The notes under the pieces were generated by a model, which saw only the letters and a program-made list of their open reading frames with translations, searched no databases and was not told the origin of the DNA. Positions 12,585 to 62,429 of a DNA stretch of 64,000 bases are shown one piece after another. This DNA comes from Octopus vulgaris (lineage: Eukaryota): assembly GCA_951406725.2 (NCBI GenBank), contig OX597827.1:57784001-57848000 (forward strand), read 5' to 3'. The position numbers and the translations under genes are program-made. How positions within the stretch are numbered: position 1 is the first letter of the stretch; every line of letters starts with the position of its first letter.

Positions 12585-12620
<36 letters not shown>

Positions 12621-12622
<2 letters not shown>

Positions 12623-14075
12623 CGGGAAGCTTTATGAAAATAGACAAAAGACGAAGGCAGGTTTACGGAAATAAACAAAAGACGAAGGCAGGTGGAATAC
12701 AAACAAACAATTGTATTAGTATGGCGCTCAGAAAATATAAATAAAACAAGTCTTTAACGTTTCGAGCCTACGCTCTTCAACAGAAAGATACACAGAGAAA
12801 AACCACAGAAAGAAGGAGAGAAGAAAAATATGCGTGCAGAAGCTAGCGAATCAACATGGCGATCTGATTTCGGCCAGAAGTCAAAGATCAAACATGAGAC
12901 GCAAGAGCGAAATAGGGGAGATAATAGGGTTGAATGACCTCGCTCCAACATAAGAGTGTGTGTGTATGAGAAGAGTGTGTGTGTGTGTATGAGAGAGTAT
13001 TAGTGCGTATGAGAGGTCTGGACGTGTGTATGTATGTATGATGTGATGTGTAAAGTCGTATGGTGTAGTGTAGAGAGAGGAGATGAGGGAAGAGGGGGAG
13101 GTGAGGGGGAGAAAGAAAGGGGAGAAGAGGAGGGGGAAGGGGAAGGGGGAGAAGGAAGGAGAGGAGAGGAGGAGGGGAGAGGAGGAGGGAGGATAGACGG
13201 AGAGGGGGAGAGAGAGAAGGGGAGTGAGGGATCAGAGAGAAAGAGGGAAGGGGAAGAGGGAAGAAGGAGGGAGGGAGAAAGAGGGAAGAAGGGAAGAGGA
13301 GTAGGGGTGAAAGGATGAAGGACTGAAGAGAAGTATGGGTCGGGGGGGAGGTTAGATGAGGAGGGGGGAGGGGGGTTAGATGAGGAGGGGGAGAGTTGAG
13401 ACCAAATGGCGTATAACAGCGAAGAGAGAAGATTAATTCCTGTTCACGGCGCAAACGGGAATCCGGATGGCCTCTGTGTAAGGACAAACCGAACACAGAC
13501 AGGTGTTGCAAGGAGTGACCGGTGGAGCGGAAATGGCGTGAGACCGGTGTGTCGTTCGCAAGGCGGATGTCACGAAGGTGTTCCGCGAACCGGTCAGCCA
13601 AGCGGCGTCCCGTTTGTCCGATGTACAGGGAATGGCAGAGAGAGCAAGAGACGCAATAGATAATATTGCTGGAGGTGCAGGTGAAGGAGTTGATGATGCG
13701 AAAGGGTCGATGATGGGTGCCAGTGAGGAGGGTGGTGTTGGAGAGGTAAGGGCAAGTGCGGCAACGTGGGCGGGAGCAGGGGAACGAGCCAGGTTGGGAG
13801 GTAGGGTCAGGGAAGGAGCTATGGACCAAAAGGTCTCGAAGGTTATGGGCTCGTTTGAAAGAGGGGAGGGGTCGGTTAGGGAAGAGGTGTGAAGTGGACG
13901 GGTCGGACTGGAGATGACGGAAAGCTCGAAGAATGGTGCGTTGGAGAGGTAGGGTCGTGGGGTGGTAAGTGAGGGGAAAAGGGAGGCGGGAGACTACAGG
14001 GCGGGTTCGGGGAGAGAGAGCAGATACACGGTCCACAGAACGTGTTCTGGCAAGGGCGGTGTGGATAGTGGTGAG
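12621..14075 (-). mobile_element. 5'-truncated Penelope-like element (Neptune-type): GIY-YIG endonuclease, purine-rich spacer and pseudo-LTR
   Basis: ORF 12888-14036 contains the Cys linker CSRPRCRTC, then IIYCVSCSLCHSLYIGQTGRRLADRFAEH...RREQELIFSL..PFGLN. An HHR motif lies in the 3' pLTR and the element is flanked by microsatellites. Confidence 0.9.
12751..12788 (-). ncRNA. Minimal hammerhead-like motif (A6U core) in the PLE pLTR
   Basis: Minus strand TCTTT-CTGTTGA-A-GAGC-GTAG-GCTC-GAAA-CG-TT-AAAGA. Confidence 0.6.
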
Positions 14076-33371: not shown

Positions 33372-33913
33372 TTTTTTACTCTAGGCACAAGGCTCGAAAT
33401 TTTTAGGGATAGGCAGTCGATGAAATCGACTCCAGTACGTAACTGGTACTAAATTTATCGACCCCCTAAGGGGCGAAAGGCAAAGTCGATCTCGGCAGAA
33501 TTTGAACTCAGAACGTAAAGACAGACGAAATACCTATTTCTTTACTACCCACAAGGGGCTACACACACAGAAAGGACAAACAAGGACAGACAAACGGATT
33601 AAGTCGATTACATCGACCCCAGTGCGTAACAGGTACTTATTTTATCGACCCCGAAAGGATGAAAAGCAAAGTCGACCTCGGCGGAATTTAAACTCAGAAC
33701 GTAGCGGCAGACGAAATACCTATTTCTTTACTACCCACAAGGGGCTAAACACAGAGGGAACAAACAAGGACAGACAAATGGATTAAGTCGATTACATCGA
33801 CCCCAGTGCGTAACAGGTACTTATTTTATCGACCCCGAAAGGATGAAAAGCAAAGTCGACCTCGGCGGAATTTGAACTCAGAACGTAGCGAACAGACGAA
33901 ATACCGCTAAGCA
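33372..33913 (-). mobile_element. SINE family C head-to-tail multimer (~185-bp period)
   Basis: ACGAAATACC recurs at 33525, 33711 and 33896. Confidence 0.85.
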
Positions 33914-34210: not shown

Positions 34211-34574
34211 TTAATGTGACAGTCCCATGAAAGGAATCATACTATTGCTATTTAGCCCTAGGAAGCAGCAACGCTCCCTGTCGGCCTTGATACATTTCCT
34301 GTGTCCTTATGTTTTCAAGGGGGAGATAAGCACCTCCACCCAGCTAAGCCTGCATCCAGAGACTAGTTTCTTAGCAGGCCATGCTAATCCAGACTGATGA
34401 CAAGCAAATACTCAGAAACTAGTCTCTGAATGCAGGCTTAGCTGGGTGGAGATGCTTATCTCCCCCTTGTTAACATAAGGACACAGGAAATGTGTCAAAG
34501 CCGACAGGAAGCGTTACTGCTTCCTAGGGCTAAATAGCAGTAGTATGATTCCCTTCATGGGACTGTCACATTAA
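34211..34574 (+). ncRNA. Large fold-back (~160-bp arms) of a PLE pLTR with central hammerhead motif (34390-34428)
   Basis: Arms 34211-34371 and 34414-34574. The HHR reads CAGA-CTGATGA-caAGCaaatACTca-GAAA-CTAG-TC-TCTG. Confidence 0.75.
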
Positions 34575-34665
34575 GTCGACAGTATACAACTACTCTATCG
34601 TACCACTACTGCATAGATCTCTCTGAGATATTTAGAAATGTATTATTTCTATTTTAGTAATTATA

Positions 34666-37532: not shown

Positions 37533-37757
37533 TGTGTGTGTGTGTGTGTGCCATGCACGAAACTCTTGTCTCTTGAGTCACTTTTTGTAAAATTTGCCGA
37601 TTAAAGTGATAAAGTGATAATATATATATACTCTTGTGTTAAGTTCTATATATTCTGTTTGTTCCACCAAACCTATGTATTTGTATGTATGTATGTGTGT
37701 TTGTATGTATTTACGTCTGTATGTATATGTTTTATACAGACGTACATGCATACATGC

Positions 37758-37854
<97 letters not shown>

Positions 37855-37929
37855 GCGTATATATATGTATATATATATATATATGTATATATATGTATAT
37901 ATATATATACATATATACATAGATATACT

Positions 37930-39183
37930 TATGGATTTGTCCCTAACTCCAGCTGCAGTGATCAGCTTGTCGAGTTCCTTGAGGACATTACTCAGATCAC
38001 TGACAGTGGCTCATGGGTGGATGTTGTCTACCTTGACTTTGCTAAGGCTTTCAACTCTGTGCCACACAAAAGGCTTATGGTGAAACTCTCTGCAATGGGT
38101 GTGAGGGATGACCTTTTTAACTGGTTGAAGTCCTTCATTCTCAACCGAAAGGAGGTAGTCACAGTTCTAGGACAGCATTCTACACCATATGAGATGTCAT
38201 CGGGTGTACCACAGGGATCTGTCCTTGGTCCCCTCTTGTTTGTGGCATACATTAATGATATAGATGCAAATTTAAAGAATGCCACAGTATTAAAATATGC
38301 AGACGACATCAAGCTGTACCTTGAAATCAAGAGGACAGATCCTGTTGTCTACAGCTCTTTCCTGCAATCAGACCTGGACACAATGCAGCAATGGATCACA
38401 GACTGGCAACTGAAACTGGCTGTGGACAAGTGTACCACCATGCATTTTGGGAGAAAAAACCCTGCGTCCACATACTCCCTCCACAACACTGATATCAAGA
38501 AATCCTCTTGCGAGCGTGACCTAGGCATCACTGTCAGCAGTGATTTGCGTTGGACAAAGCATATCTCTAAAATTGTCAAGAAGGCCGAGGGTGTCTTGGC
38601 ATCACTCAGCAAGACTTTTGTTAGCCGCTCTCCAGCCATCTATTTAAAACTGTATACAGCTATGGTACGACCACACTTGGAATTCGCATCATCAGTTTGG
38701 AACCCCTATCTTGCTCAGAACATTGACCTCCTGGAATCTGTTCAGAGACGTGCAACCAAACGCATACCCTCCATCAGACACCTACCATATTCTGAGCGCC
38801 TTGTTTCCCTGGGCATGGATTCACTGAAGCTCCGGCGTCTGGCGACGGACTTGGTAAACGCCCACAAAGTTGTCAACCACCTCACCAATAACAACACTGA
38901 TCACCTTTTTGATCTCCATGTGTCTAACACACGTGGACATGCCTACAAAGTCAGAAAACAACACAGCTCCCATGACTTTCGGAAACATTACTTCACACTC
39001 AGAGTTGCTGAAGCGTGGAATAAACTGCCTGCGTCAGTTGTTGACTGCCATGACACTGCATCCTTTAAGGCCCTCATGCTTTCCGAAATCCGTCGAAACT
39101 ACACCTGATTATATATACACTTTCGATGAGTTGTAGTGCACCTGAGCACTGTACACAATGTTTATTATTATTATTATTATTAT
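37930..39183 (+). mobile_element. 5'-truncated CR1-clade LINE: reverse transcriptase C-terminal ORF (stop at 39108), short 3' UTR, (TTA)n tail
   Basis: [60 protein letters not shown]...WNKLP. About 390 codons without a stop. Confidence 0.95.
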
Positions 39184-39267
39184 ACATACATAGAAATATT
39201 AAAATTTCTAAGTCTCTCTAAAGGAAACTACGGCAGCGGTACTGGAAATTAACGGCTATCGCCAAGC

Positions 39268-39492
39268 TAATATGGCAGTCCATAAATGTAAGACTAAAGT
39301 TGCCGTTGATTAGCTCCAAGAGGCCATCGTCTCTAGCTAGCTATATGACACACGAACCTGTGTCCATTATAACCTTCGAACAGGAGGCAAATACCCTGGT
39401 AAAGGGAAAATACCCTGAAACTTGTCTGCAGATGCCTGACCAGCAAGGGGAAGCGGCTGACCTCCCCTATTCGAAGGTTATATGGACACAGG
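39268..39492. mobile_element. PLE pLTR fold-back with decayed hammerhead (39396-39426)
   Basis: Arms 39357-39387 and 39461-39492, with CTGGTAA-AGGG-AAAATA-CCCT-GAAA-CTTG-TC between them. Confidence 0.55.
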
Positions 39493-40132
39493 CGATGTTG
39501 ATCGCCATTTCCAAAACTTTTTTCTTTTCTCAAACCTTCAAGACTTCTCCTATCGTTTTAAAGTGCGTAGTGCGAAAAACATAGACCAAAATCAGTACTG
39601 AGTGAGGGCGGGGGTTTGAAAAGGTTCATAAATTTTCGATTTTTTCCCCTTTTTTTTTATAGCAAAGACCATTGCTTTTAAGTGCATAGTGCAAAATAAA
39701 ATTGGACAAAACCAGTCAGAAAGTCGGGAAGGTGGATTTATAAATTTTCAAAAATGTTTTTCATAAAAAATTTTCCCCCCGGAAAATCCTCATCAAAACG
39801 TAGGAAATCCGATTTATGTGGGTATGCTATTCCAAAAGTTTCCCAAAGCATTCTATTGGGAAAATTACCCGGCAACGACAATATACTCAGCTAGAGGAGC
39901 TCAAGTCAAAAGAGTTACGAAATTATAAGATGTGATAGGAGGTGGGAGTCACATAATCTCACATTGCGTTTGATATCCTTGGGCGGTATAACAGTAGTCC
40001 GATGACTGGAGCCAGCAAAGGGATTAATTATTGTATCCGTGTCCTAACGCTGTTATGAAACAGAATTGTAAACCTTTCAACACTTCCACACACTGTGATA
40101 ACTCGGATTAACTATTCTGATCTCGCTAAACG

Positions 40133-40538
40133 TATCTCTTTATTGCCCACAAGGGGCTAAACATAGAGGGGAAAAAATAAGGACAGACAAAAGGATTAAG
40201 TCGATTGTATTAAATAACTGGTAATTAATTTATCGAGCCCGAAAGGATGAAAGGCAAAGTCGACCTTGGCAGAATTTGAACTCAGAACGTAACGGCAAAC
40301 GAAATACCTATTTCTTTACTACCCACAAGGGGCTAAACACAGAGAGGACAAACAAGAATAGACAAACGGATTAAGTCGATTATGTCGACCCCAGTGCGTA
40401 ACTGGTACTTATTTAATCGACCCCGAAAGGATGAAAAGCAAAGTCGACCTCGGCGGAATTTGAACTCAGAACGCAGCGGCAGACGAAATACGGCTACGCA
40501 TTTCGCCCGGCGTGCTAACGTTTCTGCCAGCTCACCGC
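40133..40538 (-). mobile_element. SINE family C dimer
   Basis: Two units joined at GAAATACCTATTTCTTTAC (~40301-40320). Confidence 0.85.
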
Positions 40539-41208
40539 TCTGTGTAGTTTCTGTTTTGTTCAAGTAAAATACAAACACATGCACGTGCGCGCACATACAC
40601 ACACACACACAAACACACGCACGCACGCACGCACACACACACATGCATGCACACACACAAACTCACACACACCACCGTTAAAGTTGGTTAAGAAAGCCAG
40701 TTGGAAATAAGGAAGTTAGAACTTTTATACTTTTACCCATTTCAATATTTCGGGTTAAAGCACCTTTATCAAGAGGAGAAAGAAGGATAGCGACGAGCTG
40801 GTTTCATGTTCACATATGTCTTCACTGCAAACCAAATAAACAACCATTTAACAAAAGAAATGGCTTTCAATAGCATTTATCCCCTTTAAGAAAAATTTGA
40901 AAAATATCTTTAACAAGTTGCTATTCAACAGTGAATTCTTTAAACTAAGAAACATTCTTGTTTGGCAGCCAGGGAAGGATCGTAAAACTTCTTTTGCTTT
41001 GACAATATTGTATTCACTTGTTGACGATTATCATTGCTTATCATTGCTATAACACCAGCAAAAATAACAGTAAACATTCTGATTCAATTATTCCTTTCCC
41101 TTATGATAAACAGGCTGTTCATTTACTTCTCTGTATCACTGTCTTTCTGCATTCTCTCATCACCATCTGTCTCCACATCTATTTCTCTTATACTATATAT
41201 ATATGTAT

Positions 41209-43483: not shown

Positions 43484-45110
43484 TTAGGGGACACAAGGTT
43501 CACAAATGAATGTAACGTCATCAATTTCAACCCCAGCACATTTTTCATGTGCCCATTCCCTGCACAGCTGGCATTCAATCCGATTTTTTGTCGGGAGTTC
43601 TTCACAGAAAATGCAATGGAAGTCCTTATCGTTTTTGATGTGAAGGCTGGTGTCTTCAGCAAACTTTCAGGGGTCTTGGATTTGTGACCTTTTCTCCTTG
43701 CTGTTGGTTTGTTGATTTTTCATGGCTTTAGCTGAGAGAGAGTCTTTAAAGAGTAAACTGGTGAGGCACTCTGAAGTCTGAGCTCTTCTTTATCTTGTAG
43801 CCTGAGTTCGTGGAACAGGCGACAAGAAAACAAAAGAGATTCTTTATTGGGATGAATTGTGTAGGCCTACCTCTATGTCTTCTTGACTTTTGCATCCATC
43901 TGCACCTTTGACAGATATCTCATAAGACTGGGGGTGGGGTGCAGGATCTACTTATGGCTGTTTCTGTGATGGTGCTGGACTTTCCTTAAGATCAGCAATT
44001 TCAGTGACTTCTACCGAAATGAAATCGACATCACCAAACATCCGGATTGTATGGCCAGATTCCAGTGCAACGAAATCCACTGCAGGCATTCCGAACTGTT
44101 GCAACTCGTATGAAGACAGAAACTTTGAAGTCATCTACCCGTTGACTTGGGTAATTGATGATCCACTTGTCAAGTTCCTGGTGATAAAAGTTTTTGAGGG
44201 GCGCAAAAAAGGTCCTGCCTAAAGGTTGAAGCTTTTGGCTGATATGAGGTGGAATTGATACCGTGACTACGCCATGTTTGCGATTACTACTCACACACAC
44301 ACACCATCTCTTGCTTCCTCTGTCCTCTTTCATGATATATGTTTATAGGGAAAGAACATTCCGAACTGTTGCAGCTCGTATGAAGACAGAAACTTTGAAG
44401 TCATCTACCCGTTGACTTGGGTAATTGATGATCCACTTGTCAAGTTCCTGGTGATAAAAGTTTTTGAGGGGCGCAAAAAAGGTCCTGCCTGAAGGTTGAA
44501 ACTTTTGGCTGATATGAGGTGGAATTGATACCATGACTACGCCATGTTTGCGATTACTACTCACACACACACACCATCTCTTGCTTCCTCTGTCCTCTTT
44601 CATGACATATGTTTTTGGGGAAAGAACATTCCGAACTGTTGCAGCTCGTATGAAGACAGAAACTTTGAAGTGATCTACCCGCTGACCTGGGTAATTGATG
44701 ATCCACTTGTCAAGTTCCTGGTGATAAAAGTTTTTGAGGGGCGCAAAAAAGGTCCTGCCTAAAGGTTGAAGCTTTTGGCTGATATGAGGCGGAATTGATA
44801 CCATGACTACGCCATGTTTGCGAGCAAGCTCAATTGAATCCACGTTAATGTGGCTGATATGATTGTCCAAAAAGGAAGAGAACTTTTCTCTCAACAGATG
44901 GATTTGTATGTTGAATGAAATGGCGTGGCCACTTAGAAAATGTTCTCCCATCAGTCCATCCATTTTCGCTTCCATGAGCAACTGAACCTTCTGGCGCTCG
45001 ATGAAGCAGTGGGTTGGCTACGTGCTTCCTCTTGAAGATAAATGCAGGCGGTATGAAATGCCCGGTGACGCTCATTGCATACACAGCTGTCGCAGTTCGT
45101 CCTGTGTTGA
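43484..45110 (-). pseudogene. pogo/Tigger-like DDE_1 transposase with C-terminal PHD-like finger (frameshifted)
   Basis: GHFIPPAFIFKRK, SENGWTD, LDNHISH, PPHISQKLQPL, SGFRCTGIWPYNP and terminal CIFCEE...IECQLCREWAHEKCAG...FICEPC*. Confidence 0.9.
44087..44822. repeat. 270-bp tandem repeat (2.7 units) inside the transposase
   Basis: CATTCCGAACTGTTGC starts at 44087, 44357 and 44627. Confidence 0.95.
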
Positions 45111-61739: not shown

Positions 61740-62070
61740 GTTGTTCTTCCCTTGTTTAATTATTTGATGCTGGATGCTGTTACTTTTATTGAAATGAGGG
61801 TTTGTATTTTTTATGTTAACTTGTGATACATGTATATTTTTTTCTGTGTTAGTGGCTATGATGTTGTCGATCCTGTTTCCTCATAGATTTGCAGAAGATT
61901 TGGTTGCAGTTTTTAGTAGGTCATGCAACCATTTAAAAGTTCCTTTCTTTTTTCTCGTGGAATTTAGTGTTTCAGTAAGCTGGATAAGGAGCAAAATTCT
62001 ATACTTGAACTTCATTTGAAAACAATTATTGAGAGAAAATAGGATTTTAACACTGAAGTATATTTGCCAC

Positions 62071-62264
62071 CTAAATGTGGCTAACCACTAAGAGTGGGTG
62101 CTACTGTAGCTTGTAGCCCCAGGAGAACATCTTCTCCACTTGGCTATTGACACACTTTCTGTGCCCTATCAGTATTTGCAAAGGGAAGTCATCCTTCCCA
62201 TCGTCAACCTGACGTGATACGCACGGACTTGGGTTTCTGGGTATTTACCTGTCGTCAGCGCACG
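62071..62264 (-). ncRNA. PLE pLTR with hammerhead motif (62220-62264) and downstream hairpin module
   Basis: Minus strand CGTGCG-CTGACGA-caGGTaaatACCca-GAAA-CCCAAG-TC-CGTGCG. Confidence 0.65.
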
Positions 62265-62429
62265 ACAATCCCCGGTCTTCGATGCGAAGGGGTGCCAATG
62301 CAAATACATATATCCTTTTTCCAGTGACGAAAAGTCACTGATCTCGAAAAAGTGTAAACAAGCAATAATAAATCTCGGCACTGTTTAAATTAAACAAATG
62401 GAATTAAAACAATAATGCACCTGTATGTG

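Follow-up and report, generated by a model that had tools for sequence, protein, structure and literature searches.

The window analysed here is a stretch of 64,000 nucleotides of the Octopus vulgaris genome (assembly GCA_951406725.2, contig OX597827.1, positions 57,784,001 to 57,848,000). A sequence-only reading had described in it three loci with a hammerhead motif followed by a module of several hairpins, and had placed them in the pseudo-LTRs (pLTRs) of three diverged PLE families. The loci, the order of their parts and most of the stems are indeed present. All three are members of a single superfamily whose ORF-less tandem monomers, about 355 nt long, carry a minimal type I hammerhead motif. 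The features of the window are listed below, counted from its first nucleotide; all structures are predictions.

34373..34657, plus: subfamily A retrozyme copy, forward arm; 5'-truncated, tail present, ending at 3' site 2
34211..34374, minus: other arm of this insertion, in inverse orientation and 5'-truncated, 93% identical and ending within P9
34394..34424, plus: A, minimal type I hammerhead motif (CUGAUGA, stem II, GAAAC, palindromic loop III, GUC), with a cut predicted from its sequence after 34424
34425..34475, plus: A, 3' arm of the long rod P5 (extended helix I), including what had been called hairpin 2
34480..34496, plus: A, P6 hairpin, nearly invariant in sequence between subfamilies
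34499..34531, plus: A, two-tier hairpin P7, with the strongest covariation
34537..34544, plus: A, module strand of P1, partner of 34605-34612
34550..34562, plus: A, short hairpin P8, weak and not universal
34563..34582, plus: A, P9 hairpin, containing the CA(C/T)ATT motif
34583..34604, plus: A, A/C-rich linker carrying 3' end site 1 (about 34594), a putative first RT start
34605..34657, plus: A, tail, with the P1 tail strand (34605-34612), P2 (34618-34628) and P3 (34633-34651); 3' end site 2, a putative second RT start, lies after P3 at its end
62051..62348, minus: subfamily B copy, ending at site 1; P4 62322-62340, rod 62172-62307, hammerhead 62226-62258, P6 62149-62165, P7 62114-62146, P1 strand 62100-62107, P8 62085-62097, P9 62066-62081
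39190..39388, minus: subfamily C copy, long arm, ending at site 2; P6 39347-39364, P7 39311-39343, P1 39299-39306 with 39230-39237, and also P8, P9, P2 and P3
39393..39498, plus: subfamily C, short opposite arm; hammerhead 3' half, rod arm and half of P6
12620..14060, minus: abundant autonomous PLE, a copy truncated on its 5' side; final part of the ORF, with a GIY-YIG-type domain, followed by the pLTR
near 12755-12780, minus: hammerhead motif of that pLTR; module absent
22761, minus: hammerhead motif of a family related to a PLE with 781-aa open frames
37621-39108, plus: LINE-type RT ORF, 3' portion (Pfam RVT_1, E 4e-29), which stops shortly before the subfamily C copy
44343-45017, minus: DDE_1 transposase fragment
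33400-33910, 40130-40540 and elsewhere: SINE-like repeats in many copies, some tandem, about 180 nt

The start of the forward A arm at 34373 is approximate because the rod is self-complementary, and the C copy of the window lacks the 5' half of the hammerhead core.

A superfamily of non-coding tandem monomers

The sequence 3' of the module recurs 5' of the hammerhead, as in a tandem arrangement. Self-comparison gives periods of 351, 357 and 361 nt, with further units of 356-357 and 359 nt, so that monomers measure 351-361 nt over the superfamily; subfamily J forms arrays of at least five units of 359 nt. The three families had been regarded as diverged and sharing patchy identity; the divergence is real (54-59% identity), but the A, B and C monomers are homologous from end to end and belong to one superfamily, with a GC content of 42-46%. 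In trimers of their consensus monomers the longest stop-free run is 43-91 aa, and with no run above 91 aa a coding role of the monomers is ruled out. A tandem period, the absence of an ORF and one minimal type I hammerhead per unit fit the class of non-LTR retrozymes. Metazoan members are described as ORF-less tandem units of 170-400 nt with one type I hammerhead each (PMC7229834; bioRxiv 10.64898/2026.07.22.740005), the monomers of which are cut and circularised, with ligation by RtcB in vitro (PMC7229834). The present family resembles them in its GC content below 50%, its strong self-pairing, its range from monomers to multimers and the presence of PLEs in the same genome. It differs in that its hammerhead is of the minimal PLE type, whereas the examples of 2020 are canonical (PMC7229834), although Li et al. 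(2026) count minimal ones as well; in its clear marks of PLE insertion; and in being known from DNA sequence and a few RNA reads, whereas retrozymes are known as unit-length circular RNA.

The hammerhead is a minimal motif on a long rod with a palindromic loop III, and lacks the canonical loop 1-loop 2 contact of the 2020 definition. Its core is kept in 16 of 18 consensuses, the others being the U4C variant of subfamily G and B2, a consensus of low coverage. Versions of the core interchange between subfamilies (C3-G8 and U3-A8), and in most consensuses loop III is palindromic or nearly so although its sequence changes, which corresponds to the dimer-type hammerhead design of PMC4209133; PLE hammerhead dimers are attributed to Lunse et al. 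in the review PMC6765202. Further likenesses to the PLE pLTRs of PMC4209133 and PMC8557442 are the extra base before stem II, the U3-A8 core variant, partial tandems, an inverted 5'-truncated copy, a tail at one end and microsatellite targets; unlike them, the present family has no RT-endonuclease ORF, and the fold is absent from the pLTRs of the autonomous PLEs sampled in the genome. Satellite 2 of newts, cited in PMC7229834 and compared here by description only, is likewise a tandem unit of about 330 nt with a type I hammerhead.

The SM-alpha repeat of schistosomes is another tandem repeat of about 330 nt with a type I hammerhead. In contrast to both of these satellites, no tRNA-like part was found in the present family: ARAGORN gave no tRNA-like head in eight loci, in which the A and B boxes were inspected by eye, and the identity of a tRNA-derived SINE was rejected on this ground.

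A first look at the 2.8-Gb genome returned 3201, 4211 and 2128 candidates for the three families, numbers that are not copy numbers. A pattern made of P6 and the start of P7 matched 3494 places, against one for the reversed control, while a pattern scan of metagenomes gave a single match without the other helices, which was judged to be due to chance. The loci collected were grouped into subfamilies by hand and rows were then reassigned by identity, which placed 288 of 306 distinct segments in 16 subfamilies. Another two, I and J, came to light by chance next to PLE loci; the A/B/C model detects them at 73 bits and at about 30 bits, respectively. The resulting 18 subfamilies, with divergence down to 50% identity, are a lower bound, as pattern and DNA searches favour families with the common P6 sequence. 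Subfamily J is young, its copies being 95-100% identical to the consensus.

Predicted fold and selection on RNA structure

Folded singly, the A, B and C monomers give the same predicted plan. It comprises, in order, P4, the long rod tipped by the hammerhead, P6, the two-tier P7, and P1, which encloses P8, P9 and the A/C-rich linker; P2 follows and, in A and C, P3, which is unpaired in B, I and J. The consensus monomers fold better than shuffled sequences (z=-9.5, -6.4 and -6.9 for A, B and C), as do the window copies A (z=-5.9) and B (z=-4.8), with copy C exceeding its shuffles weakly (z=-2.0; 9 of 200 were equally good). For the 77 pairs that occur in at least two of the three single-sequence folds, 13 other subfamilies offer 879 cells, and pairing is possible in 807 of them. 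The module had been taken for a separate downstream unit, but the whole monomer folds, and helix P1, in which a module strand pairs with a tail strand over a span of 60-70 nt, had been missed. Likewise, a stand-alone GGGA/TCCC-type hairpin behind the hammerhead forms only when excised (z -2.0 to +1.3 in all 18 consensuses, with no conserved register); this segment forms the 3' arm of the rod, and its partner strand lies 5' of the hammerhead in all 10 whole monomers examined. Through this rod the two predicted cut ends come to lie close together. The motif CA(C/T)ATT, read as the terminus, turns out to be the 5' arm and loop of P9, and the ends lie 10-20 or 55-80 nt further on.

In sequence, P6, P9 and P1 are near-invariant, and conserved loop and linker bases occur within the multi-helix fold. 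P6, whose closing pair is U-G in I and C-G in J, is the clearest case: the hairpin is present and conserved as reported, but covariation in it is nearly absent and what is seen is conservation of sequence. P8 exists at the window loci, but is weak in general and lost in subfamily G. A MAFFT alignment of 15 copies (five per family), built from sequence only, brought P6, P7 and P9 of all three families into the same register; 96.8% of its 340 cells pair, against 26-48% with slid partners, and six pairs are changed on both sides, five of them in P7 and one in P9.

On the tree of the 18 subfamilies, the hairpins of the sequence-only reading show 11.9 same-branch double changes that keep pairing, against a null of 2.5+/-1.4, and P6, P7, P8, P9 and P1 together show 19.9 against 3.7+/-1.8. 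On the 20 held-out branches, those outside the lines to A, B and C, the corresponding values are 5.0 against 1.1+/-1.0 for those hairpins and 8.0 against 1.8+/-1.2 with P1 added, p being at its floor of 0.0008. P7 and P1 carry the signal, to which stem II of the hammerhead and the rod contribute outside the module, although the rod alone is not significant on the held-out branches (p 0.10). No tree-level double change was found in P6, P8 or P2, and one in P9; the outer P7 stem of J lies in an alignment gap and was left unscored. The claim that the stems vary while their pairing is kept holds best for P7; P6 is near-invariant, P8 weak, and P9 has a single double change. A blind, R-scape-like test of all 55,278 column pairs against a tree-shuffled null, which has low power with 16 consensuses, returned one pair at E<0.05 (E 0.02) and no significant pair indicating a pseudoknot, so that the expected covariation appears in the tree-aware test (P7, P1, rod, stem II) and hardly in the blind one.

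Changes on the lineages keep and break pairs in a ratio of 37:10, whereas changes at the level of single copies do so at 155:198 (Fisher p=8e-6), a contrast that points to selection on master lineages. Moreover, G-U pairs outnumber A-C combinations by 62 to 32, which points to the strand of the hammerhead as the RNA strand. We read the RNA structure as real and selected, and the earlier proposal of a selected cis-acting RNA structure tied to PLE biology is supported, with tree-aware covariation and no Rfam counterpart: at gathering score Rfam matched none of six loci, with only chance-level matches at E up to 10. For the whole window at E 10, mostly matches to microsatellite-type miRNA entries appear among the matches listed, of 340 in total.

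Ends of the copies and the search for a helper

The 3' ends were studied in 234 distinct insertions with 311 outer ends, of which 126 lie at site 1, in the linker after P9, 158 at site 2, at the end of the tail, and 27 elsewhere. The two sites, which together account for 284 ends, flank the P1 tail strand about 45-60 nt apart and occupy matching positions in subfamilies that are 50% apart. In the same insertions, 52 arms exceed the length of one unit and 77 fold-backs occur. Of the latter, 55 combine a site 1 end with a site 2 end, 5 use the same site twice and 17 include an atypical end. One of each is thus the rule in 55 of the 60 with both ends at the two sites (binomial p=1e-11), in a sample where the choice of loci by similarity to queries fixed one arm in some cases but did not force the other to differ. 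A (TA)4 run lies within 30 nt of 129 of the 284 ends, compared with 3.5% of window positions. The copies bear the marks of PLE mobilisation: 5' truncation, partial tandems, an inverted 5' copy, an optional one-sided tail, and AT-rich or microsatellite targets; a tail often at one end only is among the PLE hallmarks given in PMC8557442.

The abundant autonomous PLE represented in the window at 12620..14060, and in the genome by 17,528 candidates, is a candidate helper and also serves as a negative control; its U-rich pLTR has a hammerhead with the core UUGAAGA but no module. This PLE has long open frames elsewhere in the genome and a CT-rich 3' UTR, and its copies end at (TA)n. In a further PLE family (L278, L283 and related matches) open frames of 781 aa are numerous and the 3' UTR is repetitive, and a GIY-YIG match in L289 lies in what we take to be an exon of a host SLX1-type nuclease and not in a PLE. 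Other GIY-YIG families sampled are likewise without the module: apart from a single chimera, it was found as a pLTR in none of 86 sources searched, where the model matches were separate insertions, two positive controls or that chimera. The sample comprises about 85 PLE loci, of a handful of protein types among many thousand candidates, and none of them proved to be a helper with shared sequence. No RT and GIY-YIG ORF between pLTRs was found for elements with the module, and the segments screened share no flanking sequence that suggests an ORF. The assignment to pLTRs of three coding PLE families is not supported; the elements are ORF-less monomers, and the autonomous PLEs sampled lack the module.

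In two chimeras the interior of the abundant autonomous PLE stands in sense orientation directly 5' of a monomer, in one case of subfamily B (L049 567-1450) and in the other of J (L251 1907-2986, minus). They represent one of 150 5' junctions, plus a single-copy case found from the PLE side, and the pattern of the PLE-J junction matched once, which means that it is not an amplified family. Both chimeras look like template switches and possibly hint at the helper.

Three RNA runs of a related organism contain 216-379 matching reads each among about 12 million examined (about 6%). These reads are mostly 85-95% alike, lie in both orientations and in about 80% of cases continue into other sequence; no discrete RNA and no pile-up of read ends at the predicted cut were seen in these runs. 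They fit read-through of embedded copies.

Possible roles of the fold

The closest precedent is PAc, a Poseidon element of Anolis (Frangieh et al. 2024; PMC11167929). Its RT is described as requiring the first 172 nt of the ORF, starting inside the hammerhead, as initiating at two sites that bound the tail, in an AC-rich stem-loop downstream of the hammerhead, and as cutting and extending both strands, with a predicted dimer. The present family is alike in its putative cis signal 3' of the hammerhead, two apparent start sites bounding a tail, an AC-rich start region, AT-rich targets and the apparent extension of both strands. However, PAc is autonomous, its signal lies inside the ORF and the available text of PMC11167929 reports no covariation across families, whereas here the element is ORF-less, the signal is read from the fold and the ends, and the tail is about 45-60 nt long instead of 30-40.

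On balance, we favour as probable that the covarying fold serves as a scaffold on which a PLE RT acting in trans finds two initiation sites. Tandem transcripts would be cut to unit length by dimeric hammerheads and perhaps ligated into circles. A PLE protein, probably as a dimer, would bind the region of P6, P7, P1 and P9 and nick both strands of AT-rich DNA; one DNA strand would be primed at site 1 and the other at site 2. Copying would then proceed back round the monomer, sometimes for more than one unit, which would account for fold-backs, for partial tandems and for a tail confined to one arm. Among the three functions suggested earlier, namely RT binding or priming, protection of the 3' end and a second ribozyme, the first appears the best, because 3' ends directly follow the module and PAc offers a precedent by analogy; proximity to the 3' ends is circumstantial as a sign of priming. 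Features reminiscent of telomerase RNA amount to a single-stranded start site beside a closing helix, with no pseudoknot signal and no repeat synthesis seen. More tentatively, as a possibility that we hold in some doubt, a non-coding RNA of 355 nt would have evolved a folded landing pad for a dimeric, telomerase-related PLE RT, with one start site per DNA strand and no sequence shared with the helper pLTR. The lack of the module in the sampled autonomous PLEs means that there is no common 3' sequence of the kind known from SINE-LINE pairs.

According to PMC7761336, metazoan retrozymes have no conserved motif that would indicate a helper, and both the mobilisation of animal retrozymes and the features of an RNA that a PLE RT recognises are open questions in the field (PMC7761336; PMC7229834; bioRxiv 10.64898/2026.07.22.740005). 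With eighteen naturally occurring variants of a fold modelled helix by helix, two mapped putative start sites, and ORFs of the same genome as candidate helpers, these questions become testable by the published in vitro assay of PAc; the one-of-each rule offers a genomic test of two-strand priming. The landing-pad reading, if true, would give animal retrozymes their first defined structural signal for mobilisation in trans, explain the one-sided PLE tail in structural terms and offer a compact means of steering PLE RTs to RNAs of choice. Previous work has already established the class of element, the tail and, for one PLE, a downstream RT signal, and the publication of such a signal behind the hammerhead of PAc lessens the novelty; new is the covarying fold over 18 subfamilies, resolved helix by helix, whereas the retrozyme papers, in their available text, give energy-minimum drawings and similar sequence and structure among corals. 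We found no description of the fold in the openly accessible literature searched, and the family may carry other names in catalogues such as Repbase, Dfam and the repeat library of PMC13282606; the available text of PMC13282606 does not mention it.

The fold might instead have been selected for survival and processing of the RNA, that is, for folding of the dimeric hammerhead, holding of the cut ends for ligation or stability of circles, while the RT would see only the A/C-rich linker or nothing specific. General selection on the fold accounts equally well for the conservation of the rod and P4, which are distant from the ends, and of the monomer as a whole beyond its 3' part. The cut ends brought together by the rod, the high self-pairing of retrozyme circles and their ligation by RtcB in vitro (PMC7229834), and candidate helpers without the module point the same way. 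Such a role leaves unexplained the near-invariant sequence of P6, P9 and P1, the two fixed start sites in subfamilies 50% apart and the one-of-each rule, and we regard it as the main rival, though rather unlikely.

Another origin of the scaffold would be a rare or extinct autonomous PLE, of which the monomer would represent the pLTR and 5' end, and the fold a cis signal inherited by ORF-less derivatives. Homology between retrozymes and pLTRs in Xenopus (Li et al. 2026, bioRxiv 10.64898/2026.07.22.740005) and the modest sample of PLE loci and protein types give this idea some room, but it is improbable considering that the segments screened share no ORF-like flank, that no source except the single chimera has a pLTR with the module, and that the subfamilies diverged to 50% identity as intact units of about 355 nt; moreover, the function would largely equal that of the RT scaffold.

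Stems that arose at the DNA level, by template-switch mutation or through a cruciform or promoter role, would need no selection on RNA. Template switching can create and repair hairpins (PMC8794818) and fold-backs are frequent in these elements, yet lineage changes keep pairs that copy-level changes mostly break, G-U prevails over A-C, bulges are retained and P1 spans too wide a stretch to suit this origin, which makes it very improbable. A second self-cleaving ribozyme, to which the conserved multi-helix fold with its conserved loop and linker bases might be ascribed, gained no other support and is hardly credible, as no Rfam ribozyme matched even at E 10, no pseudoknot pair was significant and the 3' ends fit RT starts, as in PAc.

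Some of the loci collected are of mixed composition. An inverted arm switches from C-type to A-type sequence in L088 (1616-1742), and a common repeat has captured a piece resembling subfamily I, with a P1 strand, P8, P9 and site 1, in L002 (1232-1345), L004 (2258-2370), L054 (631-745) and L082 (2271-2384). Another hammerhead-bearing repeat, unrelated to the module family, occurs in L034 (near 215) and L048 (near 2405, minus).
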